Shown here: one piece after another, positions 1,745 to 48,210 of the stretch
Layout of the letters: each line of letters opens with the position of its first letter
Position numbering within the stretch: the stretch's first letter is position 1
IMG/VR virus record: IMGVR_UViG_3300020048_005080
Source: a virus
DNA: 64,000 bases
Direction: 5' to 3' (one strand)
The notes under the pieces: model-generated
What the model saw: only the letters and a program-made list of their open reading frames with translations
Told to the model about the DNA's origin: nothing
Databases searched by the model: none
Position numbers and translations under genes: made by a program

Positions 1745-1919
1745 ATCCTTCTATTATAAAGAAAGGACCTTCCGAATCTGTATCTGTTAGAAGTTCTGCT
1801 GTGGTATCTGCTTGCTCTTTTATATAAAATCTGGTAGCAAATTCTATACCTCCAAATCTTTTACTATGTTTTGAATAGTATCTTCCTTTGATATTTTGAA
1901 TCAAAAATATTCTTTTCAT
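1719..1919 (-). CDS. hypothetical protein
   Basis: 66-aa ORF in the minus-strand operon. Confidence 0.35.
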   Translation of the reverse strand: MKRIFLIQNIKGRYYSKHSKRFGGIEFATRFYIKEQADTTAELLTDTDSEGPFFIIEGFEKFKKDE

Positions 1920-2275
1920 TATAATGGTTTTAAATATTCGACCTTTATTCCGTTTTGTTTTGCAAATTCAATCTCTGCGGCAACTCCTTTAGAATTTTCC
2001 CATCCTGGTATGGTATTACATACTAGAAGCTTATCGCATTTAGTGAGAAGAACTATACAGAAGTCCATCCAAAATGCCCAATCAGTTGGCATTTCTTTAC
2101 ATTCAGATAGAACATGTCCATATGTTATAGGAGAAATAGCAACATGTCCTTGTGCTACAAGATCTGCAGCTATTTCAGTCACAGCCTCATAATTCTTAAT
2201 TCTAATACTATCGTCAGAATTAGTATAAGGTGAAGCAATGTAGATTAATTCTTTATCCGTTTTCATCTTCGTCAT
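1919..2275 (-). CDS. nucleoside 2-deoxyribosyltransferase / DNPH1 (Rcl)-like protein
   Basis: YIASPYT near the N-terminus and the overall size fit the nucleoside deoxyribosyltransferase-like fold. It has a paralog at 24165..24653. Confidence 0.5.
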   Translation of the reverse strand: MTKMKTDKELIYIASPYTNSDDSIRIKNYEAVTEIAADLVAQGHVAISPITYGHVLSECKEMPTDWAFWMDFCIVLLTKCDKLLVCNTIPGWENSKGVAAEIEFAKQNGIKVEYLKPL

Positions 2276-2729
2276 TTTCCTCGTTATCTGCTTGTTCTTT
2301 GTATTCCAATGCTATACGGAGAAGTCCATTTAGATATTGCCATCTAGGAGCTCCGTGTGGATAACTAGGAAACAGTTCTTTAAGAACAGATTCTTGCCAT
2401 TCTTTTTCTGATTTAATGGGAGAGATCCATGAGCCATCTTCAGCATTAAAAGAGACAAAAGTTTGTACGCCCTTAATAAAGATTTCTAAATCCTCCTTCT
2501 CTGGTTTCATATCTCGTGGATATGAGCCGTAGTATATTTGTTTACCGTCAGTTCCTGTTAATGGAACATTGTTGTATATAAAGTCGGTAAATTGACTAGT
2601 GGATAGAATATCAACTATTGTATCCTCACGGTCGTACAAAACGTATTCATCTGAATCTGTTTTTTTAGCGGTGAGAATTGGGCCTTCACTATTTAGAAGC
2701 TCGATCTCTTCTGATTTTTTCGATCTCAT
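2253..2729 (-). CDS. hypothetical protein
   Basis: 158-aa ORF with an acidic C-terminus. Confidence 0.5.
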   Translation of the reverse strand: MRSKKSEEIELLNSEGPILTAKKTDSDEYVLYDREDTIVDILSTSQFTDFIYNNVPLTGTDGKQIYYGSYPRDMKPEKEDLEIFIKGVQTFVSFNAEDGSWISPIKSEKEWQESVLKELFPSYPHGAPRWQYLNGLLRIALEYKEQADNEENDEDENG

Positions 2730-2901
2730 TTTTTATAAAATTATTCTCGGGATTGTAATCACCGAGATTGTAAGTGATATAATTCTTCTCTATTGGATTA
2801 AATAATCTTACCATTAGATAATTTAACTCTGATATATGAATATTTTCCAATTCATACTCTTTATCATCCAAAATTATTTTTGGGTTTGTTTTTGCTGACA
2901 T
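2689..2901 (-). CDS. hypothetical protein
   Basis: 70-aa ORF. Confidence 0.35.
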   Translation of the reverse strand: MSAKTNPKIILDDKEYELENIHISELNYLMVRLFNPIEKNYITYNLGDYNPENNFIKNEIEKIRRDRASK

Positions 2902-3216
2902 CTATTTAGGTTTAAAAGCACCGAATAATTTTTTAAGTAATCCATTATCTTCTTTCTTAGATTTTTTCATGGGTATCACTTCATTTTTAATTTTAATTTT
3001 TTCTTGCCTGGGTTCTTTTTCGAAATCAAATTCTGTTTTAATCTCCGTGGGTTTTTGCATCTTCTGATGAAGCTCCCAATTAATAATAGAATCCATTTTT
3101 TCTTTGGAAAAATCATCAAAAAAATCATCATCTCCTCTCCTTGTTTTTTTACCTCTGTCTCTAGGAGGTGGTGGAGGATGTGAATGTGAACTAAATTGTG
3201 AAAGTTTTATTGCCAT
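2902..3216 (-). CDS. hypothetical Pro-rich basic protein
   Basis: HSHPPPPPRDRGKKTRRGDDD. The stop and start overlap that of 3216..3647. Confidence 0.4.
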   Translation of the reverse strand: MAIKLSQFSSHSHPPPPPRDRGKKTRRGDDDFFDDFSKEKMDSIINWELHQKMQKPTEIKTEFDFEKEPRQEKIKIKNEVIPMKKSKKEDNGLLKKLFGAFKPK

Positions 3217-3647
3217 TACTTTTCTTCTTTTACTACACGAAAGTAAGAATTTTCTACAAGAAAGCTATGAAGATTTTTAAGATTTTTACAAATTTCTTTT
3301 CCGTTCTCGTCCCAAGCTTGCATATCTTTTCTAGGTTTTCCTGATATTCCATCTTTCTCGTACAAATACCAACTCAGCCAATCTTGTCCATTATCAGTTA
3401 ATATCTGACTCCATAATAGGTAGATAACTTTATCGTAGGGATCTGTATAATCTATAAGGTCTATCTTTAATTGATAAGCTTCATTGCTTTTTCTGTGCAT
3501 TTCGATTAAATTATCTATGCACTCCTTAAAATCTTTAAAATTCATATTATTTTTACGGAATAAAGGAACAAAAGTTCCGGAACAAAAAACAAAAAAATAT
3601 GTATAATTTTTATGATATATTTTACTTCTGATACCCATTACGGTCAT
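3216..3647 (-). CDS. hypothetical protein (possible shorter start at 3545)
   Basis: The longest ORF overlaps the + gene at 3612. The internal Met in MNFKDFKECIDN would leave a 66-nt divergent intergenic region. Confidence 0.45.
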   Translation of the reverse strand: MTVMGIRSKIYHKNYTYFFVFCSGTFVPLFRKNNMNFKDFKECIDNLIEMHRKSNEAYQLKIDLIDYTDPYDKVIYLLWSQILTDNGQDWLSWYLYEKDGISGKPRKDMQAWDENGKEICKNLKNLHSFLVENSYFRVVKEEK

Positions 3648-4220
3648 AAGAATTTAGTTTCTGGATGTACTTCATGGGATAATGACAAAAGATGCAGAAA
3701 GTTTAATTCACTTTCTGAGCATGACGAATTTATAGTTAGATCGATAAATTCCACTGTGGGATACGAAGACACGCTTTACCATTTAGGAGATTGGAGTTTT
3801 GGAGGATTCGATAATATTAAAAAATTCAGAGACAGAATAAACTGTGCTAATGTACATTTGATCTTAGGAAATCATGATCATCACTTAGAGAATAATAGAG
3901 AAGATTGTCGTGATTATTTTTCCAGCGTGCAACATTATTTAGAAATTGAGATTGATGGCATTCGAATAATCATGAGTCATTGGCCAATGAAGGTATGGAA
4001 TAAGTACCATAAAGGATCTTGGCAATTGCATGGGCATTGTCACAATAATCTACAGCCAGATGAATGGTGGACTTCTTCGAAAGTAAACGAAAGAAGAAGA
4101 ACAATGGATATTGGGTTGGACACAAACTCTCTTAAACCTTGGTCTTTTGCTGAGCTTAAGAAGATAATGAATAAGCTAGATAAATTCGGAAAAGTTTTAG
4201 ATCATCACGAGAAAGACTAA
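3612..4220 (+). CDS. calcineurin-like metallophosphoesterase
   Basis: FTSDTHYGH, LGDWSFGG and LGNHDHH are the metallophosphoesterase motifs. Confidence 0.75.
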   Translation: MIYFTSDTHYGHKNLVSGCTSWDNDKRCRKFNSLSEHDEFIVRSINSTVGYEDTLYHLGDWSFGGFDNIKKFRDRINCANVHLILGNHDHHLENNREDCRDYFSSVQHYLEIEIDGIRIIMSHWPMKVWNKYHKGSWQLHGHCHNNLQPDEWWTSSKVNERRRTMDIGLDTNSLKPWSFAELKKIMNKLDKFGKVLDHHEKD

Positions 4221-5293
4221 ACCGTAGGTATATTAATCTGATTGATTAGATCTTCCGGTTTTTTATTCTCTATATCTTTCCAAACGTCAGATATAGTAAT
4301 TCCTATATCTTCAGTCATAATTAGTGCTTTATCTGTCCATTCAGATTTAACAGCTAAATTTATTGCCTGTATATTTTCTGTGCATGCAACAGACCCTAAA
4401 TCTAGGGATTCCTTAATAACATCAGATGCCTTATTTATAAGTTCTAAACAGCAATTATCGTGATTTTTTTTCTGTCCGCTAATATGAAAATGGAAAATGT
4501 TGTCAAAGTAGTTTTTTGATTCCTGACCATTTATTCTTGTCAATAAAGCATTTCCGATTTCTCTATAAGTTATAATCTTTAGACCTTCTAATTCGCTTGA
4601 ATTATTTGCTTTTAATCCGCTTATAAGCTCCGAATATATTTCAATAAGTGTATTTATGGCTTGTATCTCTTTAGCTCCACTTACATCATTTAAAGTGCAT
4701 AATACTGGATCTTTACTAAATATAGAATGATCTATATTTCCTATTTTTATTCCAAAAAATTCAGGAAGATAATCAATTACTATATTTAATGCTTCTTGAG
4801 GAATTCTAGTTGCAGTATTTTTCCAGATATGATTAGCAATATGTGTTAATGGTGTAATTGCTTGGTATTTACTAAAAAATGGTGGATCTATTCTAAATTC
4901 ACCTCTATAGGGCAATCCATTAACAGCATCTATTCCGCCATTAACAACTATTTCACCTGATCCAAAACTTCTTGGAATATTAAATTTACCCTCAGAATCA
5001 CTAATTGCTGTTTTTATTAGTCCTCCGCTATAGGCATATATAAAGTTCACCCTAGCTCCAACTAAAGCAGCATCGGAAACTACTCCCATATGATTTGAAA
5101 TAATATCTAAAGCTCCATCATAAGCTCCTTCTTCCCCGTCCTCATTTTTTTTACTAAATGGGTCTTTATATTTCTTTTTCTCCTCAGCTTCATTTAGTAG
5201 TCTTTGGGTCTCTTTTTCTCTCTGCCATATTTTATACTTTATACGCAGTTGATCCTCCGAAAGACCTGGATATTTTGCTCTGAAACTTATCAT
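4217..5293 (-). CDS. hypothetical protein
   Basis: 358-aa ORF at the 3' end of the long minus operon. Confidence 0.55.
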   Translation of the reverse strand: MISFRAKYPGLSEDQLRIKYKIWQREKETQRLLNEAEEKKKYKDPFSKKNEDGEEGAYDGALDIISNHMGVVSDAALVGARVNFIYAYSGGLIKTAISDSEGKFNIPRSFGSGEIVVNGGIDAVNGLPYRGEFRIDPPFFSKYQAITPLTHIANHIWKNTATRIPQEALNIVIDYLPEFFGIKIGNIDHSIFSKDPVLCTLNDVSGAKEIQAINTLIEIYSELISGLKANNSSELEGLKIITYREIGNALLTRINGQESKNYFDNIFHFHISGQKKNHDNCCLELINKASDVIKESLDLGSVACTENIQAINLAVKSEWTDKALIMTEDIGITISDVWKDIENKKPEDLINQINIPTV

Positions 5294-5311
5294 CGGATTA
5301 TATATCCGAAT

Positions 5312-6322
5312 TTAGATTTTAGAGCTACCAAAGCCAATTCCTGATTTCTTTTTACCCCCTTTGATTCTTGGCTTATCTGATAGAGCATTAAGAGTAGCTA
5401 AAGATTCTTTAAAATCTTTGCCCATAACTATTACAGAAATAACTAATTCTTTTAAATGTGATAATGACATATCTTCACTCGAATCTAACCATTCTTCTAG
5501 ATTGATGTTTTTAAGATCCTCATCAGATAATTTATTCTTAATATATGATTCTCTAATCGCTCTAGATGGCATTTGAACCTCATATCTTCTATCAAATCTA
5601 GAAGGTCTGTTTGTAATACGCTCTTGCAGTTTTTCTGGGTAATTTGTAGTTGCAATATAAACTACATTCTCAATTTGTTTAACACCGTCTAGAATGTTAA
5701 GCAATTTTGTAGTGGAATATCTGTCCTCGCCTGCTAATGAATCAATATCTTCAAGTATTACAATAAGAGGTCTTTCAGGTTCAATTGTTCTGATTGTTGG
5801 AACAAATTCAACAAATGCTTTAAAATCTTCATCCTCTTTGATATTAATAACAATCCCATTCTCTTCTTCAATTAGGTTCTTAACGCAAAGTTGGATAATT
5901 CCTGATTTACCACACCCAGGATCTCCATAAAGTAAAATACCCCTTTTGTGTACGAAGTTATACTCTTTATATGTTTCTCTTTTTCTCCAGAATATTTTTA
6001 TGTCACTTAGAATGCTTTCGATCTCAGGGGAAGGCAGTTCATAAAGTTCATCAATATTTAAAGCCTGTTTAGCAATAACCCAAGTCTGTAATGAGCTATT
6101 CCATTTCATTTCATAAAGCCCAGATGGAACATGCGGAATTGAAACATACGAGGGTGCAAATTGGTCATTCTGTAATACAGACCATTGTGTGTGTGTATGC
6201 GTGTCTATCGATTCTAAATCATCGTCAAAATATCCTTCTCTCATTTTTCTAGTTATATTAATTAAATTGTTTATTCTTTCCGTAACATCTGCCTTAGTTC
6301 TTGCAGTCTTTTTATTTTTCAT
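5312..6322 (-). CDS. AAA+ ATPase
   Basis: Walker A is LLYGDPGCGKSG, Walker B is IVILEDID, sensor-1 is ATTNYP, and the Arg finger region is RPSRFDRR. Confidence 0.8.
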   Translation of the reverse strand: MKNKKTARTKADVTERINNLINITRKMREGYFDDDLESIDTHTHTQWSVLQNDQFAPSYVSIPHVPSGLYEMKWNSSLQTWVIAKQALNIDELYELPSPEIESILSDIKIFWRKRETYKEYNFVHKRGILLYGDPGCGKSGIIQLCVKNLIEEENGIVINIKEDEDFKAFVEFVPTIRTIEPERPLIVILEDIDSLAGEDRYSTTKLLNILDGVKQIENVVYIATTNYPEKLQERITNRPSRFDRRYEVQMPSRAIRESYIKNKLSDEDLKNINLEEWLDSSEDMSLSHLKELVISVIVMGKDFKESLATLNALSDKPRIKGGKKKSGIGFGSSKI

Positions 6323-7334
6323 TCAATAGGAATTTATTACTGATAACTTTAAAAGATATCTTTCTATCAATGCTTCTTATAACAACACCCTCTCTGTCAA
6401 AATTAGGATTATGATAAGATTTTCCGTCTGCATAAGATAAAAGATCCTCTATTGTATCGGGTAAAGTAAATTCTGTTTCAATTTTGGGTACTGTATCAAG
6501 ACCTAATCCATGAATAGTATTAACAAATTCTGTTAACCCCACATATTCACGTGTGTCTATATTAAACACATTAAAGAACTTAACCGTCTGTCCTAAGATT
6601 TTATAAGGATTACCTTGTATACCTTCTCCGATTAGCTCTCCTTGAAAACACACATTATATTCTAAAGATTTCATTTTGTTCTCTAGATCTAAATTTCTTG
6701 CAACTTTCCAGAATGAATTTCCTTCAGTTTCTAAAAGCTCTAAATTTCTAGAACAAACACCAAACTCTCCATCTTTGTAATAGTATGTAGCAGAACTTCC
6801 GTCTAGTTTTTCTGTCACATAGAATTTATTGTCTTCTACTTTCCATCCTTCAAATACTGATGAAAGATTTTGAATTCTTTCTTCATCAGTCTTTGGAATG
6901 AATCCAGGAAATAGTCCTTTAGCTACTCCAGATAATTCTGCAGGCATAGGTGGTTCGTATTTAATGATTCCCAAAATTTCAGATACATCAGATCCTTCTT
7001 CAAATTCTACTATAAAATTCTTATATCTCATAAGAACATTTATTGGAATAATTAGACCTTGAGAAACCTGTCCTCTAAGTTTAATTGTTCTCAATCTGAA
7101 TCCTTCTGAGCCATCTGCCATTTTTTTGTATGAAGACTTTCTAAGGAATTCAAATTCTTCTTTAATTGGAAGGAATGAATCGATCTCGCAGTAGATTACA
7201 TAATCACCCTCTTTGTGTTCTACGTTTTTCCCTACTACCACCTTCCATCCGTTTACAATTGCCAATTCAATAGCATCCGCACCTTCAATTGGAAGGATTT
7301 CTTTAATTTTCTGAATCGTTGCTAGTTTTCTCAT
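6312..7334 (-). CDS. ATP-dependent RNA ligase (KxDG nucleotidyltransferase, DRB0094/TIGR02306-like)
   Basis: The N-terminus MRKLATIQKIKEILPIEGADAIELA is typical of this ligase family. The KxDG motif is TEKLDGSS. Confidence 0.75.
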   Translation of the reverse strand: MRKLATIQKIKEILPIEGADAIELAIVNGWKVVVGKNVEHKEGDYVIYCEIDSFLPIKEEFEFLRKSSYKKMADGSEGFRLRTIKLRGQVSQGLIIPINVLMRYKNFIVEFEEGSDVSEILGIIKYEPPMPAELSGVAKGLFPGFIPKTDEERIQNLSSVFEGWKVEDNKFYVTEKLDGSSATYYYKDGEFGVCSRNLELLETEGNSFWKVARNLDLENKMKSLEYNVCFQGELIGEGIQGNPYKILGQTVKFFNVFNIDTREYVGLTEFVNTIHGLGLDTVPKIETEFTLPDTIEDLLSYADGKSYHNPNFDREGVVIRSIDRKISFKVISNKFLLNEK

Positions 7335-7914
7335 CTATTAACTTATTTTGTTTATATGCGTCTCTCAATATCTCGTCTAGCGACAATTTATTGTTTTCTT
7401 TCTTGTAGATCACTATAGTTACCTGACAATCTCTAAGTTCCTTCTGTATAAGATATTTAATATGATCCCAATCACCTCCTGCAAGTCCTGCTCCGATCAT
7501 AGGAAGTCCTATACGTTTACCTTGAAACACCATATTCATTTTTCTTAGACATAATGTCAAAGCTTCATAATCAATAGGTCTTAAAACACCATCAGAGTGA
7601 TTTCTTCCGTAGTTGTATTGTGTATAGGCATTAACAACAGTTAATTCTGGTTCATTGCGATTGTTCTTTGCATCTTCCAAAGACCATATTGCATTTTCAC
7701 CTAATACAAATGTTTCATGGTCAATATTACCTAATTTGTTAATATCAGAACCAATAAGTTCCATTTCAAATTTATCACATCCAAAAGCCTTAGCCATCTG
7801 GGGAGCAATACCTGCTCCCATAGTTGAATGACAATTGCATCCGTGTGCAATCACATCAAATATGCCTTGCTTAGCATATTCAATTAGATCCCCTTTTATC
7901 TCTTGGTATCTCAT
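7303..7914 (-). CDS. macro domain (ADP-ribose binding/processing) protein
   Basis: GDLIEY...DVIAHGCNCHSTMGAGIAPQMAKAFG is a macro-domain glycine-rich loop. Confidence 0.7.
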   Translation of the reverse strand: MRYQEIKGDLIEYAKQGIFDVIAHGCNCHSTMGAGIAPQMAKAFGCDKFEMELIGSDINKLGNIDHETFVLGENAIWSLEDAKNNRNEPELTVVNAYTQYNYGRNHSDGVLRPIDYEALTLCLRKMNMVFQGKRIGLPMIGAGLAGGDWDHIKYLIQKELRDCQVTIVIYKKENNKLSLDEILRDAYKQNKLIDEKTSNDSEN

Positions 7915-8087
7915 GTCTCCTTAATATAAAATTCTCTATTAGGTGAATCATAATCCCATGACATATCTCTAACGAGAGCTGAGTAAACCCAGTTAGCAAT
8001 CATTTCTGTTGGACATTGACACACCAGCTCATCCCTTGTAATATCTCCTGAATCTGGATCAATATCTTTATATCTAATTTCTGTCAT
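7911..8087 (-). CDS. small hypothetical protein (58 aa, below the track threshold)
   Basis: ORF MTEIRYKDIDPDSGDITRDELVCQCP... fills the gap between the two neighbours with ATGA overlaps. Confidence 0.25.
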   Translation of the reverse strand: MTEIRYKDIDPDSGDITRDELVCQCPTEMIANWVYSALVRDMSWDYDSPNREFYIKET

Positions 8088-8362
8088 GAATTAATTCCTC
8101 TAACCTCATTAATAATTTTACCTTCTTCCTTAGGTTTATCTTCTTCTTTGATTTCTACAAAATCTTCAATAGATTCTATCATTGTATTTACTATAGGATA
8201 ATAGCATAGAATTTTTCTTCTAATTATTTCTTCATTCGGATTATTTTCATCATTATAGAAATAATAATACCCTGAGCCAGAGCTGAAATCATCACAGATT
8301 ATTTCTCTTTTGTAATCACCTGGTGGTGCAATTATAATGAGTTTAAATTTTTGCTTAGCCAT
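8084..8362 (-). CDS. hypothetical protein
   Basis: 92-aa ORF. Confidence 0.4.
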   Translation of the reverse strand: MAKQKFKLIIIAPPGDYKREIICDDFSSGSGYYYFYNDENNPNEEIIRRKILCYYPIVNTMIESIEDFVEIKEEDKPKEEGKIINEVRGINS

Positions 8363-8366
8363 AATT

Positions 8367-8627
8367 TTAGCCTAATTTTATCGTGGAAAATGTTAACCAA
8401 TCGCCTTCTCTTTGGTCACTGTTCCATTTTACATCTTCCCATCCAGCTTTAAGATATCTTTCCTTAATTATTTGAAAATGAGAAAAAGACATCCCTGAAG
8501 GAACTCCTGTATTCACTGAAGAATTTGGTGCTACCTTTTTATTAGCTAATTCATGATCTATTTTATTTTCGAAAGTATCAAGCTCTGCTAGAAAGTTAGC
8601 ATTTAATTGATTCGGTCCTATTGCCAT
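8367..8627 (-). CDS. hypothetical protein
   Basis: 86-aa ORF. Confidence 0.4.
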   Translation of the reverse strand: MAIGPNQLNANFLAELDTFENKIDHELANKKVAPNSSVNTGVPSGMSFSHFQIIKERYLKAGWEDVKWNSDQREGDWLTFSTIKLG

Positions 8628-8628
8628 A

Positions 8629-8964
8629 TTATTTTTCTTTGATTGTTTGTTCTGATTTAACTCTGTACCCTTTTTCTTCTTCTAAAGATTCTCTAAATCT
8701 TTTTAAAAATTCTTTAGCGTCTTTTTCATTGTCGTAATATCTATAGGCATACATTTCGTATCCTATCATATAACAGCAATTCATCCAGATTAAAGCAAAG
8801 GGAACTCTTTGTTGAATGTAATATCTTTTCTCCCCGTTTTGATAAATTACTTTTCTGATCCTGTGTCCCCATGAATATTTGGAAATATCAGACATATGGA
8901 AAAAAATTATACAAAATAACGGAAGTAATATAACTAATACTGATGCTATAGTAAGAAATTTCAT
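8629..8964 (-). CDS. hypothetical membrane protein
   Basis: N-terminal TM helix LTIASVLVILLPLFCIIFF. Confidence 0.4.
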   Translation of the reverse strand: MKFLTIASVLVILLPLFCIIFFHMSDISKYSWGHRIRKVIYQNGEKRYYIQQRVPFALIWMNCCYMIGYEMYAYRYYDNEKDAKEFLKRFRESLEEEKGYRVKSEQTIKEK

Positions 8965-8979
8965 TGATAGTGGTTTAAA

Positions 8980-9900
8980 TTATAATACTTCTAATTGCCA
9001 TAAAAATTTCGAATCAACCGTGTAATCTGAATGTGAATCACATTCTATAACGGAAAAACTGTTTGTTGAATATACATTTTCAAAATACTTAGATAACTCC
9101 AAAAATGAATTGCTGAATATTCCATGAGTCACACAAAGGAATACTTTATTATCTGGAAATTTCTCTTTAATTGCTTTTGAAATCTCTATGAAGGTTCTTC
9201 CTCCATCACAAATATCATCAAAGATTACAAATGTCTTATTAGCATGTGTCATATCCAATGGAACATTTGTACTTACAATTTTACCTGTAGTAATATCTCT
9301 ATGTTTGCTAGCTACAATAACATCGGTTATTCCGTTATGTTCTGCAACATCATAGATTTTCTTTAATGCACCAGCATCAGGAGAAATTATAGCAATATCT
9401 TTCTTGTCAATTGAATGTTCGAAAAATATTCTAGAAATACATTTTTTAGAAAACTCAACGTTAGAGTCTTTTTTAAAATTTATAATACATGATTCTAAAG
9501 CATCTGAATGAGGATCTAACACGATAACTTCTGAATATCCTTGAGCATTTATAATTGGAGAAATTACATCTTTAATATAATTAAATCCACCATCAGAGAA
9601 TTTTCTGTCAGATCTTGCACCAATGAAATAAGGAACGTATAATGAAATATCAGAAACTCCTGCTTCTTTTAATGCTGCAGTTGCACATAAGAGAATCTCG
9701 ACATCTTTAAAATTTCTTAATCTCTTATAAATACGTACGGGGTAACATTTATTAGTACCATATTCATCTTCTTTTTCTTTGTACCAAATTAATGAATCAG
9801 GATCAGTTAGTGTCAAAGATTGTTGTCCGTCAGGAAACTTAGAAATCTTATAAGATATTCCTGTTTGTTCTGGTGTTTCTAGATTAATTATTTTTCTCAT
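8980..9900 (-). CDS. ribose-phosphate pyrophosphokinase (PRPP synthetase) family protein (Prs or ADPR-PP synthetase-like)
   Basis: PRPP-binding loop VIFDDICDGGRTF, Prs-like length, and the N-terminal domain DGQQSLTLTD. Confidence 0.8.
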   Translation of the reverse strand: MRKIINLETPEQTGISYKISKFPDGQQSLTLTDPDSLIWYKEKEDEYGTNKCYPVRIYKRLRNFKDVEILLCATAALKEAGVSDISLYVPYFIGARSDRKFSDGGFNYIKDVISPIINAQGYSEVIVLDPHSDALESCIINFKKDSNVEFSKKCISRIFFEHSIDKKDIAIISPDAGALKKIYDVAEHNGITDVIVASKHRDITTGKIVSTNVPLDMTHANKTFVIFDDICDGGRTFIEISKAIKEKFPDNKVFLCVTHGIFSNSFLELSKYFENVYSTNSFSVIECDSHSDYTVDSKFLWQLEVL

Positions 9901-10480
9901 TCTCTTGTGTTTTTAATTGTTTTTCAATATAATCTGCAATAATAATTACCGCTTCGTCTTGTATCCACCAATGTTCATTACCATTTATAGTAACAGAGAA
10001 ATCCCCGTCTGTTGGATCAAGAACCACTTCATTAATAATGACAACTGGATTTTGCTTTCTTTTCTTTTCTTTATCAAATTTCATAAAAATCTCAGAAGCT
10101 AAACCTACATAATCTTTTCTTCTGATCCTTTCCTTGTAGGCATAATAATAAGTGCTCTCTCCAGTAGGACTGTGAATCACAACCACTTCTAAATCACTCC
10201 AGTCTTTTACCAGCTTCCAATTTTTGTGAATGTAACTTTTTGCTATATTAGCAATGTGTCCCATAGCAGCTAGATGTTTCTGATATTCATCCTTGAATTC
10301 TTTATCAACATAAAATATTGATTCCTTATAACCTTCTTCGAATTCTTCCTCTGTCATGAAGCACGGACTCATTATAGATCCGTGTATAAGATTAGGATGG
10401 TCTTTTTTTCTCGCCATATTCTTTTCTGATTTTATCAACTTCTTCAAAATATCGATCTGCATCATCGTGCCACACATCAA
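9884..10480 (-). CDS. hypothetical protein
   Basis: 198-aa ORF. I checked for NMNAT and 2H motifs and could not confirm either. Confidence 0.5.
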   Translation of the reverse strand: MMCGTMMQIDILKKLIKSEKNMARKKDHPNLIHGSIMSPCFMTEEEFEEGYKESIFYVDKEFKDEYQKHLAAMGHIANIAKSYIHKNWKLVKDWSDLEVVVIHSPTGESTYYYAYKERIRRKDYVGLASEIFMKFDKEKKRKQNPVVIINEVVLDPTDGDFSVTINGNEHWWIQDEAVIIIADYIEKQLKTQENEKNN

Positions 10481-10775
10481 CAGTTCCGTAATAAACTACA
10501 TCTTCTACTTCCTCGATTTTTTTAATTTCATTAGAAACCCATTCTTTATCCGATTCGTTTTTTAGACTATCAAAAAAGAATTGGTATTTCTCTTGATCAC
10601 CTCCGCCAGTACAATCCATTCCCTTAGATATAACAATATCGATTATCTTATCTACAATTTTTCCTTCAGGATCAGGACCACAGTAAACATCAATACAAAA
10701 TCCATATTGTCTGAATTCTCCGACTCTCTTTTTCTTCCTAATTCTTCTGCTGTATTTGCTCCTTTGGAACTCCAT
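10392..10775 (-). CDS. hypothetical protein (first gene of the long minus operon)
   Basis: It lies directly downstream of the conserved promoter cassette at 10790-10840. Confidence 0.45.
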   Translation of the reverse strand: MEFQRSKYSRRIRKKKRVGEFRQYGFCIDVYCGPDPEGKIVDKIIDIVISKGMDCTGGGDQEKYQFFFDSLKNESDKEWVSNEIKKIEEVEDVVYYGTVDVWHDDADRYFEEVDKIRKEYGEKKRPS

Positions 10776-10789: not shown

Positions 10790-10881
10790 GTAAAGATAGA
10801 AATTTCTTATTGATTAAAAAAACGTTTTAACGAAATTGGATAAATACTTTACTGAATTATAATATATAATGAAAGAATTCT
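10790..10881. promoter_or_regulatory. divergent promoter pair sharing a palindromic TTAAAAAAACGTTTTAA core
   Basis: The minus-oriented cassette AAACGTTTTTTTAATCAATAAGAAATTTCTATCTTTAC drives 10775. The + side, ACGTTTTAACGAAATTGGATAAATACTTTAC, drives 10882. Confidence 0.55.
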
Positions 10882-11877: not shown

Positions 11878-12270
11878 TCACTTATAGAAAGGATTTAGCT
11901 CGCTTAATACTGAAACGACCTCGTCTATTTTTTTGCAATCGTCTATAAATCCTATTACTTCTTCATCATTCAGATGAAAAAATTCATTATTAGATAGTGT
12001 TCTTTTCGCTTTATATTTTCTATGAAGCCATCTTTCAATTTTCTTATAGTTTTTACTTCTATAAGTTTTAAGCACAGATAAGTCTCCTGAATTCCCGGTT
12101 TTTAATTTCTTTAATCTTTCTTGTGGATCGTTTTTAGTGATTCCGATTTTATACTTCTCTTCGCCGTGCTGGTCTCCTTCTATAATTAGATAAACATAAC
12201 CTTCATTCATATTATATTTATCTTTTATTTTTACGAGAGGAAACTTAAACCTGCAATTAAAATATAACAA
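11878..12270 (-). CDS. GIY-YIG superfamily (T5orf172/MUG113-like) protein
   Basis: GYVYLI...KIGITKNDPQERLKKLKTGNS is the T5orf172-type pattern. Confidence 0.5.
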   Translation of the reverse strand: MLYFNCRFKFPLVKIKDKYNMNEGYVYLIIEGDQHGEEKYKIGITKNDPQERLKKLKTGNSGDLSVLKTYRSKNYKKIERWLHRKYKAKRTLSNNEFFHLNDEEVIGFIDDCKKIDEVVSVLSELNPFYK

Positions 12271-13898: not shown

Positions 13899-13939
13899 AA
13901 TCATTTTTTATTACAATTAGTAATTTCTAGATTTGCAAT
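13898..13939 (+). promoter_or_regulatory. promoter cassette (AAATCATTTTTTAT ... TTTCTAGATTTGC)
   Basis: AAATCATTTTTTATTACAATTAGTAATTTCTAGATTTGCAAT sits immediately 5' of the ATG at 13940. The -7 element is TAGATTTG. Confidence 0.55.
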
Positions 13940-14347
13940 ATGGAAAAAATAGCAAAACAGGTTATTGTGATCCGAAAGGATCTTAACATGAGAAAAGGAA
14001 AGATGGTAGCACAAGGTGCTCACGCATCTATGGCAGCAGTACTTGATCAAATGGTTATAAGAAATTGTCCTACAGGAATTCAGGAAAAAACTCTCTCACT
14101 AGAAAGTGGAACACCGATGGAATCTTGGATTAACGGTCTATTCACTAAAGTTTGTGTTTCTGTAGATTCTGAATCGGAATTAATGGAGATATATGAAAAG
14201 GCTAAAGGAGCAGGACTTATTGCATCTATAATCACTGATGCTGGCCTTACTGAATTTGCTGGAGTTCCAACAAAAACATGTATTGCAATTGGACCAAATT
14301 GGTCAGAAGAAGTTAACGAAATAACAGGACATTTAAAACTATTATAA
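13940..14347 (+). CDS. peptidyl-tRNA hydrolase, PTH2 family
   Basis: KQVIVIRKDLNMRKGKMVAQGAHAS and the C-terminus GLIASIITDAGLTEFAGVPTKTCIAIGP...TGHLKLL closely parallel archaeal/eukaryotic PTH2. Confidence 0.8.
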   Translation: MEKIAKQVIVIRKDLNMRKGKMVAQGAHASMAAVLDQMVIRNCPTGIQEKTLSLESGTPMESWINGLFTKVCVSVDSESELMEIYEKAKGAGLIASIITDAGLTEFAGVPTKTCIAIGPNWSEEVNEITGHLKLL

Positions 14348-16124: not shown

Positions 16125-16465
16125 TGGAACATATAGAATTATACGAGAATTTTAATCAAAGAACAATGATTATTAAACACAGAAACTTTGGGGAGATTAA
16201 AATCGAACTCCAAGGGAGCCAAATAATGGATGTCGTAAATAATTCCAATGTTATGTTTCCCTTCGGTGTAGGTTCTTCATGGAACAGATCAATAGAGACT
16301 TGGGCTTGTAGAAACAACTTTATTAAAATTGAAACATGGATGAATAACCGAATGGCTAGACAAGAAGACACATGTCCGGAGGAAAAAGTAGCAGGGATTA
16401 GAGTTAAAGATATTCCACCTGGACATCCTCTAAGAATCATGTACCCAAATAAGTTTAAAAAATAA
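16124..16465 (+). CDS. hypothetical protein (N-terminal MEHIELYENF tag)
   Basis: ATG at 16124 with a TAATG overlap. The track starts at a GTG at 16118. Confidence 0.45.
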   Translation: MEHIELYENFNQRTMIIKHRNFGEIKIELQGSQIMDVVNNSNVMFPFGVGSSWNRSIETWACRNNFIKIETWMNNRMARQEDTCPEEKVAGIRVKDIPPGHPLRIMYPNKFKK

Positions 16466-20277: not shown

Positions 20278-20339
20278 ATATATTAAATCATTTTTTTTAT
20301 CAATAAGAAATTTCTAATATTGCAAGGTAATTAAAAAAT
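20278..20339 (+). promoter_or_regulatory. promoter cassette
   Basis: AAATCATTTTTTTTATCAATAAGAAATTTCTAATATTGCAAGG. The segment TCAATAAGAAATTTCTA is identical to the 10775 promoter. Confidence 0.55.
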
Positions 20340-20657: not shown

Positions 20658-22184
20658 ATGATAAATCCAGCTCTGCTAACAGACGGGTATAAAACTGGGC
20701 ATCACCAGCAATATCCCAAGGGAACGACATTAGTCTATTCCAATTTTACACCAAGAAGCAACAAGTACGCACCTAAGGGATGTGATATGGTAGTTTCTTT
20801 CGGACAACAATTAATCATGAAGCAAATTCACGAGAGTTTTAGAAAAGATTTCTTTGATCAACCAAAAGAAGCAGTATGTAAAGAGATTAGAGAGGAGCTC
20901 TCTTTATACCTAGGTGTAGATTATGACACAAGTCATTTCGAAGCTCTTCATGATCTTGGACATCTTCCTATTAAAGTTAAAGCATTACCAGAAGGCACAT
21001 TGGTTCCTATTAAAGTTCCAGTTTTAACTATCTACAATACAAACCCAGATTTTTACTGGATAACAAATTATTTGGAAACCCTAGTTTCTAATCTTCTTTG
21101 GAAACCAATAACCTCAGCAACTATTGCATTCCAATACAAAAGAGTACTTACAGAATGGGCTCTTAAAACAAATCAAGAAGCTAAAGAATTTGTTTACTGG
21201 CAAGGACACGATTTCTCTATGAGAGGTTTAGATTCTATTGATGCTGTAGTTTCATCTGGACTTGGTCACTTAACATCATTCTACGGTACGGATTCTCTTC
21301 CAGCAATTTACGGAGCACGTAAATTCTACGGAGCAGAAGGATTTGTTGGAGGCTCAGTTCCTGCAACAGAACACTCAGTTATGTGTGCAGGTGGTAAAGA
21401 AGACGAGATTGATACGTTCAGAAGATTACTTGAAACATATCCTAAAGGAATTCTTTCTGTAGTATCTGATACATGGGATTTATGGAAAGTGTGTACAGAA
21501 CACGTAGTCACTTTGAAAGATGAAATTCTTGCTCGTGATGGTAAATTAGTTATACGTCCTGACTCAGGAGATCCGGTTGATATTCTTTGTGGGTGGGGTG
21601 GCTTTGATCCTGAAGGTGAAAGCGAAGAAGCTAAAAATGAGCCACAAAATAAAGGAGTAATTGAATTACTTTGGGACGTATTTGGCGGAACAGTCAATGC
21701 TCAAGGTTACAAAGTACTTGACCCACACATCGGAGCTATCTATGGGGATTCAATCACAATCGACAGAGCAAATGAAATCTGCGCAAGACTAGAAGCAAAA
21801 GGATTCGCATCAACAAATGTTGTATTAGGGGTTGGTTCTTTCACTTATCAATATAACACTCGTGACACATTTGGTTTTGCAATGAAAGCAACGTATGTCG
21901 AAGTAAATAAACCAAAATTCGAAGGCGATTTCAATCCAGAAGGACGTGAGATCTTTAAAGATCCTATCACAGATGATGGAACAAAAAAATCTGCAACGGG
22001 ATTATTAAGTGTTCACAGTCATGATGGCGAATTGGTTTTAATTGACAAATGTACATGGGAAGGTGAAGAGGTTAGTTTATTACAAACAATTTACCAAGAC
22101 GGTATTTTTCACAATCCAGTTACTCTAAATGAAATCAGAGAGAAATTAGATAAAGCTATACATTTACAATTCGAATTAGCTTAA
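20658..22184 (+). CDS. nadV: nicotinamide phosphoribosyltransferase (NAMPT family)
   Basis: N-terminus MINPALLTDGYKTGHHQQYPKGT. The 508-aa length and colinear conservation are typical of NadV/NAMPT. Confidence 0.85.
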   Translation: MINPALLTDGYKTGHHQQYPKGTTLVYSNFTPRSNKYAPKGCDMVVSFGQQLIMKQIHESFRKDFFDQPKEAVCKEIREELSLYLGVDYDTSHFEALHDLGHLPIKVKALPEGTLVPIKVPVLTIYNTNPDFYWITNYLETLVSNLLWKPITSATIAFQYKRVLTEWALKTNQEAKEFVYWQGHDFSMRGLDSIDAVVSSGLGHLTSFYGTDSLPAIYGARKFYGAEGFVGGSVPATEHSVMCAGGKEDEIDTFRRLLETYPKGILSVVSDTWDLWKVCTEHVVTLKDEILARDGKLVIRPDSGDPVDILCGWGGFDPEGESEEAKNEPQNKGVIELLWDVFGGTVNAQGYKVLDPHIGAIYGDSITIDRANEICARLEAKGFASTNVVLGVGSFTYQYNTRDTFGFAMKATYVEVNKPKFEGDFNPEGREIFKDPITDDGTKKSATGLLSVHSHDGELVLIDKCTWEGEEVSLLQTIYQDGIFHNPVTLNEIREKLDKAIHLQFELA

Positions 22185-24164: not shown

Positions 24165-24653
24165 ATGAAAGTACAAATTTTAAAACCTACTGACGGTGAC
24201 CCTGTGCTTAACAAGGTCACCGTTTTTCTTGCTGGTTCTATAGAAATGGGAGCAGCAGAGGATTGGCAGACTATTGTTTCTAACAAGATGGAAGAATTGG
24301 AAATGCCTATTACTATATTTAATCCAAGAAGAGATTCATGGGATTCATCTTGGGAACAGAGAGAATCTAATCCACAATTTAGCCAACAGGTTAACTGGGA
24401 GATGGATAGACTTAATGAATGTGATATTATATTTATGTACTTCTCCCCTGGTACAAAATCCCCTATCTCTCTATTAGAATTAGGTCTTCATGCAGATTCA
24501 AGAAAAATGATCGTGTGTTGTCCTGATGAATTTTGGAGAAAGGGCAACGTTGAAATTGTTTGCTCTAGACACAATATACCTTTACATGACAATCTAGAAC
24601 ACGCTATGATGTGTTTGTCAGCTGTAACATCATCAGAATTAATTAATAAATAA
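24165..24653 (+). CDS. 2'-deoxynucleoside 5'-phosphate N-hydrolase / nucleoside deoxyribosyltransferase-like (DNPH1/Rcl fold)
   Basis: VFLAGSIEMGAAEDWQ, FNPRRDSWDS, ECDIIF, and SLLELG. It is a paralog of 1919..2275. Confidence 0.6.
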   Translation: MKVQILKPTDGDPVLNKVTVFLAGSIEMGAAEDWQTIVSNKMEELEMPITIFNPRRDSWDSSWEQRESNPQFSQQVNWEMDRLNECDIIFMYFSPGTKSPISLLELGLHADSRKMIVCCPDEFWRKGNVEIVCSRHNIPLHDNLEHAMMCLSAVTSSELINK

Positions 24654-27184: not shown

Positions 27185-27572
27185 TTCTTATCACCGATCC
27201 CTGTCCGTGCATAACTTGAATAATGTAAGATCCCATATAATAAGCTTCTCCCGTGAACATATTCAGATATTTTTCATCTGTACATTCTTTGCAATATTTC
27301 TTTGCGTATCCTAAAGCTATCCATAGAAGAGATTCTCTAGGTTCATATCCTAAAGAATATTCTCTTCTTACGTATTCATCAGAATCGTATTTTTCTATTA
27401 ACTTCTCAAGATAAGCGTCAATATCGGACTCTGCTAATTTTTTGAATTTTTCGATCCATCTATCTTTACGCTCTTCCTCTCTTTTTATTTTGTTTCCAAA
27501 TTCCTCAATGGATTTCTTACCCTCTTCGGTATCTAAAAATTCTCTCAATTTTTCTACCATGCTTTTACTCAT
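27168..27572 (-). CDS. hypothetical protein
   Basis: 134-aa ORF. Confidence 0.5.
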   Translation of the reverse strand: MSKSMVEKLREFLDTEEGKKSIEEFGNKIKREEERKDRWIEKFKKLAESDIDAYLEKLIEKYDSDEYVRREYSLGYEPRESLLWIALGYAKKYCKECTDEKYLNMFTGEAYYMGSYIIQVMHGQGSVIRIDKML

Positions 27573-28303
27573 AACTCAAATGTTGGTTTTAACCATATGC
27601 CCCTGCTGAAAACTAATTTAGTAAATCCAGGTAATGTATTTTCAACTTCTCTAAAAAGATCTAAAGATGCAACAGTGTCGTGCTTCATCATCTTAAAAAC
27701 TTCCTCTCTAATTCTTTCTGCAGAAACAACCTTCTCAAGCTTTTCTAAAATTTCAGGTTGTGTCATTGCAGAAATAATATCGTAATTTATTAGAAATCCC
27801 TTAGTAACCGCAAATCTTAAGGCTCTTAAAAACCTTAAAGGATCATCCATCATAGTCTGCTCAGCTGGAAGTGGTGTTCTTAATATTTTTCTTTCTAAAT
27901 CTTCTTTACCTCCAAATAGATCTATGATGTTTCCATCATCATCCTCTGCCATAGCATTTAGAGTAAAGTCTCTCCTGATAAGATCATCTTCCAAAGTTCC
28001 AAGAACCAAAATTGGCTGTCTTGTCCCCTGTACATATCCAATCTCTTTTCTTGCCATTACAAAATCTGCAACTAGTCCTTCGTTTTTATGTCCTTTTGGA
28101 AACTTAGCTCTGATAGTAAAACAATCAGGAGTAGACAAGAATATACTAAATGCCTCTTGGGCTAGCCAATTTGTCATTGATTGAAATCCTTCTTCTACTG
28201 TCTGATCTAGATTATCTAGAATAAATGTGAAATCGATATCTTTAGATTCTACGCCTAATAGCTTATCCCTTACACATCCTCCAACTTTAAATATCTGTGG
28301 CAT
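27569..28303 (-). CDS. tRNA nucleotidyltransferase (CCA-adding / poly(A) polymerase head domain, class II), minimal
   Basis: VGGCVRDKLLGVESKDIDFTF matches GGxVRD...DxD, and RRDFTLNAMA is the class II NTase motif. Confidence 0.8.
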   Translation of the reverse strand: MPQIFKVGGCVRDKLLGVESKDIDFTFILDNLDQTVEEGFQSMTNWLAQEAFSIFLSTPDCFTIRAKFPKGHKNEGLVADFVMARKEIGYVQGTRQPILVLGTLEDDLIRRDFTLNAMAEDDDGNIIDLFGGKEDLERKILRTPLPAEQTMMDDPLRFLRALRFAVTKGFLINYDIISAMTQPEILEKLEKVVSAERIREEVFKMMKHDTVASLDLFREVENTLPGFTKLVFSRGIWLKPTFEL

Positions 28304-31136: not shown

Positions 31137-31151
31137 CTTATTTATATAATA

Positions 31152-31190: not shown

Positions 31191-31192
31191 TA

Positions 31193-43194: not shown

Positions 43195-43346
43195 AGCTTA
43201 GGCTTAATAAAATTAATTCCAATTAAGAATATCATAACTAAATTAGTAGTTAGGTGAAGACCCCTTCCGTTGTATTTATAGCAAAGAATATTTCCAATGG
43301 CTAAGGCAATTAGTAAAATAATTGGAAAGATATATTTTTTTATCAT
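43191..43346 (-). CDS. small membrane protein (51 aa, below the track threshold)
   Basis: MIKKYIFPIILLIALAIG... with ATGA overlaps on both sides. Confidence 0.25.
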   Translation of the reverse strand: MIKKYIFPIILLIALAIGNILCYKYNGRGLHLTTNLVMIFLIGINFIKPKL

Positions 43347-44164
43347 ACTTCTAAATCTAAAATTAGTACATCATCATAATCATCCCATGGACAATCAACT
43401 AAATAATGTGTGACCTCTCCACAGATAATATCTTTTATCATTTTTTGTGGAGTGTGTCCAACTATCTGATTAACCCCTTCTAAAGGAAAATCATTTAGTA
43501 TTGTGGGCCTAACCCAGAAAGGCCCTGCCCATAAGTTATAGCCTCCGCTGTGTGCATCAACATTAAATATGTTATCGACTCTGAGCTCAAATAGATCATT
43601 TATAAATTTTTCCAGATCATTAGGATCAAAATCTTTAGTTATTTCATGTTTTTTATATCTTGGGTTATTAATATCTCTACAAACATCTTTTAGCCATCCG
43701 TTAGTAACTCCTGCATGTGTCCATAAATACTTAACACCTGTATTATCTTTTTCTAAATGAGCCGCTTTAAAACATTCTTTATTATCAGTAAATAATTGAT
43801 AAAGATCTGGCTTCATTTCTGCTCTATATCCGCTACAAACTTCGTTGGGAACAAAATATTGAATATCGTGATTTCCAAGTAAAAGTACAACCTTGTCAGG
43901 TAATGCTTTTTTGAAGAAAAGTATTTTTTTAAGATTGTCTAGGATTGTAACATTGCTAATATCAAAGCTGTCTACATAATCTCCGACGAATATGATTTGA
44001 TCATATTCAGTATAAGGCATTTCTTTCCAAAATTCTTCAGCATCTGCTGGAACTCCATTTTCAACCATTGTCATCCAGTGATTGAATTCATAAGGGCTTC
44101 CGTGTGTATGAAACATCCACTTATCCCGCCCATGAACATCCCCTAATGTTAAAATCTTCTTCAT
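43343..44164 (-). CDS. Ser/Thr phosphatase-like metallophosphoesterase
   Basis: LGDVHG, GDYVD and LLGNHD. Confidence 0.75.
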   Translation of the reverse strand: MKKILTLGDVHGRDKWMFHTHGSPYEFNHWMTMVENGVPADAEEFWKEMPYTEYDQIIFVGDYVDSFDISNVTILDNLKKILFFKKALPDKVVLLLGNHDIQYFVPNEVCSGYRAEMKPDLYQLFTDNKECFKAAHLEKDNTGVKYLWTHAGVTNGWLKDVCRDINNPRYKKHEITKDFDPNDLEKFINDLFELRVDNIFNVDAHSGGYNLWAGPFWVRPTILNDFPLEGVNQIVGHTPQKMIKDIICGEVTHYLVDCPWDDYDDVLILDLEV

Positions 44165-46426: not shown

Positions 46427-46429
46427 TTC

Positions 46430-47832: not shown

Positions 47833-48210
47833 TTATAATATTATTTTCTTTTTAACAAGCATTTCCCTAACTTTGACCCAGTCAACAAAATCTCGGTGCT
47901 CAGAAACTAGCGGACATCCCAAAGCAGCGTCGTCAATATAAAGCTGGCAAAAAGCTTTTGGTGATGAAGTCCAAGATGATTGCTCGGGATTAGTTTGAAT
48001 ACCATAGAGAGGAATTTCGTTTTCTTTAAACCAATTTATTGCATCATCCAAGAAATTGCCCTTATCACCATTCGATCTCATTGTCCATAAGATTAGACTA
48101 TGACCATTAGCAATGAGTTCTTTTAGTACTGGAGCAGCTCCAATATCTCTTCCTACATATGGAAACGCGTGAACTACACAAGTTCCATCAAAATCAATTC
48201 CAATTACCAT
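47833..48210 (-). CDS. small HAD-superfamily phosphatase
   Basis: Motif I is IGIDFDGT and motif IV is YIDDA. Confidence 0.55.
   Translation of the reverse strand: MVIGIDFDGTCVVHAFPYVGRDIGAAPVLKELIANGHSLILWTMRSNGDKGNFLDDAINWFKENEIPLYGIQTNPEQSSWTSSPKAFCQLYIDDAALGCPLVSEHRDFVDWVKVREMLVKKKIIL

Follow-up and report, generated by a model that had tools for sequence, protein, structure and literature searches.

A predicted dispersed NARP1-AP gene set and an Rnl5-family RNA ligase gene in a probable counter-defence island of a large uncultivated phage

An eleven-gene minus-strand run and a distant Namat gene

In the 64,000-nt viral sequence of IMG/VR record IMGVR_UViG_3300020048_005080 (hereafter the window, meaning the whole stretch that was analysed), we examined a run of eleven minus-strand genes (g1–g11, from 10775 down to 4217), among them predicted genes for an ADP-ribose pyrophosphate synthetase (Adps, g3), a macro-domain protein (g8), an RNA ligase (g9) and an AAA ATPase (g10), together with a gene for a nicotinamide ADP-ribose transferase (Namat) elsewhere in the window. 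The open reading frames (ORFs) of the eleven-gene minus-strand operon proposed earlier from the bare DNA (the original prediction) were confirmed, and the same eleven genes were called independently on ENA ERZ27262918 k141_180887 and JGI 3300042863, which are other assemblies of the same phage. The genes are tightly packed, with overlaps of 4, 4, 11, 17, 26 and 32 nt and gaps of 1, 4, 15 and 18 nt, but the ATGA 4-nt overlaps that had been described throughout the run occur at two junctions only. For g2, the most likely start is at 10417 (177 aa), in agreement with the independent gene calls. We take g1–g11 to be probably co-transcribed as one early unit. DNA similarity to cultured phages was limited to short stretches of 70–78%, so the phage has no close isolate.

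A promoter cassette had been placed at 10790–10840. A repeated-motif search returned seven matches to ATAAGAAATTTCTAWMTTT in the window against 1.1 expected, and an exact match to this promoter-like motif (ATAAGAAATTTCTATCTTT; 10792..10810, minus strand) lies 16 nt upstream of g1, but a sigma-70 scan was negative across the 106-bp gap that precedes g1, 10790–10840 included. Across the window, the same scan gave fewer sites than in shuffled sequence. Further copies of the motif precede a PTH2-RlaP unit (13916–13934), the Namat unit (20303..20321, plus strand, two mismatches), a sigma-factor gene (59766–59784) and one other gene, and a looser copy stands ahead of the CCA-type gene described below; g1 and the Namat unit are thereby preceded by the same motif. 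Its 3' part appears similar to TAnnTTTG, the Bacteroidota -7 element.

The protein encoded by g3 (8980..9900, minus strand) had been read as a Prs-like enzyme of an RNA-repair operon. Membership of the Prs family held (phrog_619, 6e-59), but its features are those of Adps, the first enzyme of NARP1, and not those of a phosphoribosyl pyrophosphate (PRPP) synthetase or a repair enzyme. As references for Adps and Namat we used the loci of a Felixounavirus relative, SPbetaL1 and FADO, with JSF10 and Wyman for the three-gene layout. Three signatures of g3 (DPHSD, DDICDGGRTF and K199-x-R-D..TG) are common to the Adps of NARP1 operons in JSF10, PD06 and a Felixounavirus, and E. coli Prs differs at all three, with DLHAEQ and DDMIDTGGT among its versions; in an alignment with SPbetaL1 Adps, K199 is the counterpart of the catalytic K162. 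On TIGR01251, g3 scored 106.9 bits, which is below the cut-off of 113, and it fell far under all Prs equivalog cut-offs. Validated Adps proteins score similarly on this model (SPbetaL1, 106.0; FADO, 96.5) and NARP1-linked Adps proteins reach 110–135 bits, compared to 422.7 bits for E. coli Prs, which attains 423–533 bits across the curated Prs models. Among 80 viral contigs with the closest Namat relatives (66 after de-replication), a g3 homologue lies immediately upstream of Namat in 68. These comparisons argue for g3 encoding a phage Adps and not a true Prs. In the related contig L128, the Adps gene (2129–3010) encodes a protein only 52% identical to g3, and the flanking macro and ligase proteins are 95–96% identical to their counterparts, which suggests an allelic replacement.

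The second enzyme of NARP1 is predicted from a gene that was missing from the list of the original prediction. This 508-aa Namat (20658..22184, plus strand; PF04095 and PF18127) matched the SPbetaL1 Namat structures 9W5X and 9W5W (PMC12774641) at E=1e-162 and human NAMPT at 1e-65, and it is 54% identical to biochemically validated Namat. Its residues R300, F395 and Y399 are equivalent to R306, F392 and Y396 of the SPbetaL1 enzyme, which are the catalytic arginine and the two clamp-helix aromatics; the latter are Gly and Lys in Nampt. The variable clamp-loop position R40 is K36 in the window protein. Directly downstream, after a terminator-like hairpin, lies the gene of a 630-aa SPFH/Band-7 protein (22270–24162, plus strand), and the Namat-Band7 order recurs in five to six other viral loci (79–87% identity). 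Scans of the window for tRNAs and Rfam families gave no matches, so a tRNA-like partner of the Band-7 protein is unsupported.

At 7303..7914 (g8, minus strand), the predicted macro domain was recovered by phrog_335 ('phosphatase', 2e-47) and by a search of the g8 family profile against PDB, which matched BT1257 (9e-15), TARG1/OARD1 (2.5e-9) and, over its N-terminal part only, Poa1p (2.4e-6). In Pfam, g8 stayed below threshold, so PHROG, the profile-versus-PDB search and synteny were needed for its assignment. Homologues that are 56–75% identical lie between or beside Adps and Namat in 26 of the 80 loci, and g8 is 29–33% identical to the macro genes of the NARP1 loci of JSF10, Wyman and PAK_P2. 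We therefore annotate g8 as a probable Adpp, which would turn ADP-ribose (ADPR)-1''-phosphate or other 1''-substituted ADPR into ADPR. Taken together, the residues and neighbourhoods of g3, g8 and Namat are consistent with a dispersed NARP1-AP, encoded in two units behind the same motif. The proposed pairing of the macro domain with PTH2 did not hold, as the two genes belong to separate transcription units.

The KxDG RNA ligase predicted at 6312..7334 (g9, minus strand) was confirmed, with KLDG at K176, and can be assigned to the Rnl5 family (DraRnl/NgrRnl) of ATP-dependent nick-sealing RNA ligases. It comprises an N-terminal OB module (PF21189, residues 4–98, 1e-36) and an adenylyltransferase domain (PF09414, residues 170–331, 1e-22) and has no C-terminal appendage. 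On TIGR02306, the equivalog of the Deinococcus DRB0094 ligase, it scored 200.9 bits, above the cut-off of 151, and residues 1–338 align with residues 4–336 of NgrRnl (5COT) at E=4e-73. Motifs I, III, IV and V read K176LDG, QGELIGE, EGVVIR and SFKVISN. By homology, g9 would seal 3'-OH/5'-PO4 nicks in duplex RNA; Rnl5 enzymes seal duplex nicks rather than anticodon loops (PMC4408790). The precedent of T4 Rnl1, to which the ligase had been likened, does not apply: g9 is a nick-sealing Rnl5. No homologue of Rnl1 was found in the window either (tblastn with the Rnl1-type ligases of JSF10, PAK_P2, Wyman and PD06 was negative). A role of g9 as a nicotinamide mononucleotide (NMN) adenylyltransferase was considered and rejected because the OB module is kept and the protein can be aligned over its full length with a ligase proven to seal nicks.

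Further genes of RNA-repair type lie outside the run. PTH2 (13940–14347, plus strand; PF01981, 1.5e-34) and RlaP (14347–15534, plus strand; PF10127, 8e-18), the latter predicted as a Pol-beta nucleotidyltransferase, were both verified at the domain level and form a separate early unit of RNA-repair and ribosome-rescue type, with RlaP 7 kb away from the ligase. RlaP extends damaged RNA at its 3' end by adding nucleotides (PMC12776372). The supposed CCA-adding enzyme (27569..28303, minus strand) has a PolyA_pol head (PF01743, 4e-20; phrog_24229, 3e-61) and is a class II CCA-adding/poly(A)-polymerase-type nucleotidyltransferase, but it is a short form of 244 aa that scores below all NCBIfam cut-offs. 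Convergent with the operon lies a metallophosphoesterase (MPE) gene (3612..4220, plus strand; PF00149, 1.8e-5; phrog_547, 1e-47); its predicted family stands, but the gene overlaps the operon tail to tail by 4 nt and does not diverge from it as had been stated. The protein is 30% identical (E ~1e-24) to the phosphoesterases of MPE-Rnl1-kinase triads in JSF10 and PAK_P2 and may be considered a candidate RNA 3'-end-healing enzyme. A second metallophosphoesterase (43343..44164) was also confirmed. The proposed HAD phosphatase (47833..48210) shows a DxDGT motif, but has no Pfam match and carries the PHROG label phosphoheptose isomerase.

Several partners of classical RNA repair were sought without success. 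No homologue of an AAA_33 5'-kinase was detected in the 64-kb window by tblastn with phage kinases, and the P-loop ORFs of the window are restricted to the AAA gene, an ABC ATPase, a helicase and two chance matches. Likewise, tblastn with E. coli KptA (E<0.01) gave no match in the window or related loci, no Sir2 was found in Pfam scans of limited sensitivity that covered about 80 window ORFs, with about 20 small ORFs lying outside those scans, and no Thg1 homologue was found in the window. Profile searches for Rnl families, PTH2, Macro and PolyA_pol matched for Rnl5, PTH2 and PolyA_pol, but not above threshold in Pfam for the macro domain. Of the toolkit for healing, sealing, CCA repair and peptidyl-tRNA recycling that had been proposed, Rnl5, RlaP, PTH2, CCA-type and MPE genes are present, but a 5'-kinase and KptA were not found in the 64 kb, and the operon does not read as one functional system.

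The AAA+ ATPase predicted at 5312..6322 (g10, minus strand) was verified as a single-domain ATPase of the classic AAA clade and of unfoldase type (PF00004, 5e-15; Walker A GDPGCGKS) with a unique N-terminal region of about 120 aa. It matches Afg2, VAT and Cdc48 at 1e-24 to 1e-18, and homologues (52–85% identity) were found in 36 viral loci, most of them without a ligase. Its conserved partner in this phage lineage, g11 (4217..5293, minus strand), is predicted to combine a transthyretin-like beta-sandwich with a helical domain (pLDDT 85; no useful structural neighbour). A perfect hairpin (5293–5309) lies within the 18-nt gap between both genes, and in two relatives about 0.9 kb is inserted at this position (L010:12030-12965 and L011:12015-12946). 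Neighbour clustering over 22 loci revealed no conserved neighbour of the AAA gene. The idea that g10 works with the ligase was rejected; the AAA gene is kept with or without the ligase.

Cassette turnover in relatives and NARP1 neighbourhoods

Comparison with close IMG/VR relatives revealed extensive mosaicism. One relative has the order g1-g2-Adps-g7-macro-ligase-AAA-g11, with an Adps that is 52% and macro and ligase proteins that are 95–96% identical. In L011, g1 is directly followed by ligase-AAA-g11, with neither Adps nor macro; in L012, a 26-aa remnant of the ligase lies ahead of the AAA gene; and in L014 the ligase is absent. AAA, g11 and MPE are retained in all these relatives, the MPE gene also in those lacking the ligase. 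Because AAA-g11 is kept with or without the ligase, these two appear as backbone genes and the ligase as an optional insertion. PTH2-RlaP is present in L128 and in part in L133, but L129, L130 and L132 lack it; this pair and the Namat-Band7 block come and go independently, and the occurrence of RlaP in relatives is not tied to that of the ligase. Gain and loss therefore take place independently for three cassettes, namely the Adps-macro block, the ligase and PTH2-RlaP.

Next to NARP1 in other phages, genes of RNA-repair type are frequent. In 50 of the 80 loci, Namat has at least one such gene within 10 kb, compared to 1/73 and 2/29 in two control sets with other genes as their anchors. The loci lack phylogenetic independence, and some of the controls belong to other phage populations. 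Within this distance, CCA-type homologues occur in 17/80 loci, AAA_33 kinases in 15/80 and Thg1-like tRNA-His guanylyltransferases, which are 55–57% identical to that of Bacillus phage FADO, in 16/80. When only loci of 12 kb or more are considered, the kinase accompanies the ligase (12/17 versus 0/41, p=7e-9), as does MPE (p=0.002), and ligase and macro are anticorrelated (2/17 versus 21/41, p=0.007). Triads of MPE, Rnl1 and AAA_33 kinase adjoin Adps-(macro)-Namat in the cultured phages JSF10 and Wyman, PAK_P2 and PD06. No such neighbours, the ligase included, were found near NARP1 in the Staphylococcus, Listeria, Bacillus SPbeta-like and Felixounavirus loci. The simplest reading of these neighbourhoods is that NARP1 is surrounded by an island of alternative accessory cassettes and not by the genes of one pathway.

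In this phage group, the gene that most often accompanies NARP1 encodes a nucleoside-2-deoxyribosyltransferase-like protein, in the window at 24165..24653 (plus strand; PF15891, 4e-36), whose closest structure is the uncharacterised 4MCJ. Such genes are found no more than 10 kb from Namat in 55/80 loci (44/66 de-replicated), usually 0.5–3.5 kb away, and co-occur with macro (p=8e-4). The protein may be a feeder or a base-exchange accessory enzyme. In the full-text literature searched, no link between NARP1 and this gene was found, and NARP1 and RNA ligases were mentioned together only incidentally, in a single paper. The deoxyribosyltransferase-like superfamily (DUF1937/DUF4406/DUF7768) has another member at 1919–2275 (minus strand), with homologues adjoining Namat in L097 and L120. 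Homologues of a 152-aa protein (56413–56871, minus strand), which in the window is encoded 34 kb from Namat, directly follow Namat in 19/80 loci (14/66 de-replicated), L051, L072, L080 and L095 among others. A 296-aa protein (24661–25551, plus strand) matches the major capsid model T4 Gp23 in its middle part only (2.5e-14); its gene is situated among accessory genes and may not be the real capsid gene, and weak homologues follow Namat in eight loci.

The remaining genes of the run encode small proteins, and g2, g4–g7 and g11 gave no informative family match. A YggL-like (DUF469) protein of 127 aa and of 50S-ribosome-binding type is encoded by g1 (10392..10775, minus strand; PF04320, 1.5e-7, above cut-off), which is conserved in L010, L011 and L012; as it belongs to no PHROG family, it appears to be rare in phages. 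Its combination with PTH2 hints at a manipulation of translation. For g2 (9884..10417, minus strand), Pfam, PHROG and NCBIfam returned no match, and homologues were found near Namat in L053, L063 and L097. A hydrophobic N-terminus is seen in the small protein of g4 (8629..8964, minus strand; phrog_24605, 9e-8), which is absent from L010. Homologues of g5 (86 aa; 8367..8627, minus strand) adjoin the macro gene in L053, L063, L066, L068 and L123, g6 (92 aa; 8084..8362, minus strand) is an ORF with no family match in Pfam or PHROG, and g7 (58 aa; 7911..8087, minus strand) is conserved in L010 (81% identity), where it stands between Adps and macro, and is also found in L012 and L019–L021.

Elsewhere, the phage encodes a 711-aa GAF-PAS-PAS-HATPase sensor histidine kinase (40679–42814, minus strand), which is conserved in L130 and L132 and unusual for a phage, and a row of host-like transport and envelope genes for an ABC transporter ATPase, a permease and a 591-aa OmpA-domain protein (29539–32968, minus strand). 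A deoxyhypusine-synthase-family protein (51981–52961, minus strand; PF01916, 9e-40) belongs to an NAD+-dependent family, and its gene has a looser copy of the promoter motif upstream. Two sigma-70-family paralogues are 37% identical, one with regions 1.2–2 only (19127–20002, minus strand) and one with regions 1.2–4 (58872–59738, minus strand). T5orf172/MUG113 (GIY-YIG-like), non-specific DNA/RNA endonuclease, Pif1/RecD-like helicase and ClpP-like protease genes were noted at 11878–12270 (minus strand), 16465–17067 (plus strand) and 44990–47002 (minus strand). Past the left edge of the window, a contig of the same phage encodes a cREC_REC protein (L208:17150-17563), a family for which cyclic-phosphate processing has been predicted in published work, and thymidylate synthase, a 4HBT thioesterase and another metallophosphoesterase are encoded just outside the window.

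Interpretation of the island and competing readings

We read the eleven-gene unit as a mosaic of separately mobile cassettes, namely NARP1-AP and the ligase, inserted on an AAA-g11 backbone within a counter-defence island, and put the probability of this reading at roughly three in four. In this large uncultivated phage, the region is probably a hypervariable island for counter-defence. Homology, conserved residues, synteny and gene presence or absence are the observations on which this reading is built, and enzymatic activities, co-transcription and a counter-defence role are what they suggest. Host NADases would split NAD+ into nicotinamide and ADP-ribose or ADPR-1''-phosphate. The g8 macro protein would convert ADPR-1''-phosphate, or other 1''-substituted ADP-ribose, to ADP-ribose, which Adps would pyrophosphorylate with ATP to ADPR-PP, and Namat would then combine ADPR-PP and nicotinamide to NAD+. 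In this way, the NAD+ pool would be rebuilt after depletion by Thoeris, DSR, SIR2-HerA, SEFIR or aRES. The g9 ligase, with MPE, RlaP, the CCA-type enzyme and PTH2, may plausibly repair RNA damaged by host nucleases. The backbone genes g10 and g11 are regarded as unrelated to either cassette.

Several points weigh against this interpretation. The Adps and Namat genes lie on opposite strands, with 10.8 kb and about 19 ORFs between them. In a published survey Namat was close by, within ten genes, for 97% of Adps-clade genes, so the layout in the window departs from the adjacency by which NARP1 loci are defined. An inversion between two promoter copies was considered as the cause of this split and rejected, because flanking genes would not move. 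In L128, the closest relative with Adps and macro, Namat is missing from the syntenic site, although only a partial contig is visible. Because TARG1/OARD1 and BT1257 outscore Poa1p, a phosphatase specificity of g8 is tentative. For the ligase, the search of the window yielded no 5'-kinase, and a physiological substrate has yet to be assigned to Rnl5 enzymes.

A more far-reaching proposal, which we consider speculative and unlikely, would make NARP1 the hub of a modular damage-reversal island in which RNA heal-and-seal cassettes and ADPR-feeding enzymes are functionally coupled to NAD+ reconstitution. Its parts would be ligases of interchangeable families, the AAA_33 kinase, MPE, CCA-type and Thg1 enzymes, with the deoxyribosyltransferase-like protein as the main feeder candidate. 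The coupling could consist in NAD+-consuming RNA end-healing or in the conversion of further NAD-derived immune signals to ADP-ribose, and if this were true, the window would represent a dispersed example, co-regulated by one promoter type.

The underlying assumption that RNA repair is mechanistically coupled to NAD+ reconstitution, for example through NAD+-consuming end-healing or a shared trigger, appears rather doubtful in its own right. It would account for the excess of RNA-repair-type genes around Namat over the two control sets, for the kinase triads beside Adps-Namat in unrelated cultured phages and for the presence of Rnl5 and Rnl1 ligases in the same neighbourhood, which would amount to non-orthologous displacement; NAD+-dependent RNA repair has also been proposed for phages (PMC9503650). 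However, no NAD+-using repair enzyme, be it KptA or a sirtuin, was found in the window, ligase and macro avoid each other, and the Staphylococcus, Listeria, SPbeta-like and Felixounavirus NARP1 loci do without a nearby ligase. Moreover, accessory and anti-defence genes cluster in islands without coupling anyway, and the mixed origin of the controls and the shared ancestry of the loci reduce the weight of the counts.

A different role for g8, in which it mainly reverses macromolecular ADP-ribosylation by DarT-, CmdT- or ART-type defences instead of feeding NARP1, seems improbable. Here the ranking of the profile matches is favourable, as TARG1/OARD1 (2.5e-9) and a DarG model (1.3e-7, partial) come out above Poa1p. 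Yet g8 orthologues are embedded between Adps and Namat, and a NARP1-associated macro protein has been shown to be an ADPR-1''P phosphatase. As any macro activity of g8 would free ADP-ribose, the substrate of Adps, the feeder and de-ADP-ribosylation roles are not exclusive.

The view closest to the original prediction is that of one integrated tRNA heal-and-seal operon, in which the macro and Prs-like proteins serve RNA repair, for example by processing the Appr-1''-p that arises when 2'-phosphates are removed and by supplying PRPP, and the AAA protein assists the ligase. The translational coupling of ligase, macro, AAA and Prs-like genes in one run agrees with this, as do the RlaP, PTH2, CCA-type and metallophosphoesterase genes elsewhere in the window and the fact that macro domains process Appr-1''-p in yeast tRNA splicing (PMC9503650). 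We nevertheless consider it very improbable, given that tblastn (E<0.01) found no KptA/Tpt1 homologue and that no P-loop kinase was detected in the window, that g3 has Adps and not Prs features, that the cassettes are gained and lost independently while AAA is conserved without the ligase, and that ligase and macro are anticorrelated near NARP1. Classical salvage of the KVP40 type (NARP2-like), with g3 as a true PRPP synthetase and the 20658–22184 protein as a true Nampt making NMN for conversion to NAD+ by a phage or host Nmnat, can practically be dismissed: Pfam and PHROG annotations do read Prs and Nampt, Namat enzymes keep an NMN-forming activity in vitro and an Nmnat could lie outside the 64 kb visible of a larger genome, but g3 has a quarter of the score of a real Prs and fails every Prs equivalog cut-off, the Namat clamp residues are conserved in a protein 54% identical to a validated Namat and no Nmnat was seen in the window.

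Relation to known systems

NARP1 was described in 2024 (10.1101/2024.02.11.579819) and NARP1-AP, with its Adps-Adpp-Namat layout, in 2026 (10.64898/2026.01.28.702374); in the latter, the macro protein dephosphorylates aRES-made ADPR-1''-phosphate, letting NARP1 rebuild NAD+. Like NARP1-AP of Vibrio phage Gary and its relatives (Osterman et al. 2024 and 2026), the window encodes all three families with conserved catalytic and selectivity residues, and related viral contigs carry contiguous Adps-macro-Namat operons with proteins that are 45–79% identical; the same three genes are found in JSF10 and Wyman. In contrast to these layouts, Adps and macro are separated in the window by four small genes inside a larger operon, and Namat, 10.8 kb off on the other strand, has its own unit with the same motif. 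The macro protein is also distant from the Vibrio and Pseudomonas phage versions (about 29–33% identity). If the assignments hold, a phage can carry a complete NARP1-AP in dispersed form. As detectors that require Adps-Namat adjacency miss such a form, surveys may undercount the pathway. For annotation, this would mean that the labels 'ribose-phosphate pyrophosphokinase', 'nicotinate phosphoribosyltransferase' and 'phosphatase' are to be replaced by Adps, Namat and Adpp-like, respectively. The strong clustering of RNA-repair genes around NARP1, seen in environmental and cultured phages alike, and its deoxyribosyltransferase-like companion offer leads to new accessory anti-defence enzymes.

With the Rnl5 ligases of Deinococcus radiodurans (DraRnl) and Naegleria gruberi (NgrRnl), g9 shares the OB module and adenylyltransferase domain, the motifs and an end-to-end match, but it is phage-encoded, shares its operon with genes for NAD+ reconstitution and has an overlap with the AAA ATPase gene. 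The window resembles T4 Pnk plus Rnl1 and the MPE-Rnl1-kinase triads in having a ligase and a homologous MPE near Adps and macro, and a counter-nuclease role is plausible. It differs from them in that its ligase is an Rnl5 and not a PF09511 Rnl1, that a search of the window gave no polynucleotide kinase and that the ATPase next to the ligase is of the classic AAA unfoldase type instead of an AAA_33 kinase. The RNA-repair toolkit of jumbo phages (Iyer et al. 2021, PMC7824862) likewise comprises a ligase, RlaP, a CCA-adding enzyme, PTH2 and a calcineurin-like phosphatase, whereas in the window these genes are dispersed over several units, RlaP does not lie beside the ligase and the CCA-type protein is short. 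While NARP1 (2024), NARP1-AP (2026) and Rnl5 (2007–2015) are thus already known, the split NARP1-AP layout that escapes the adjacency rule and its combination with an Rnl5 ligase in one operon are new.

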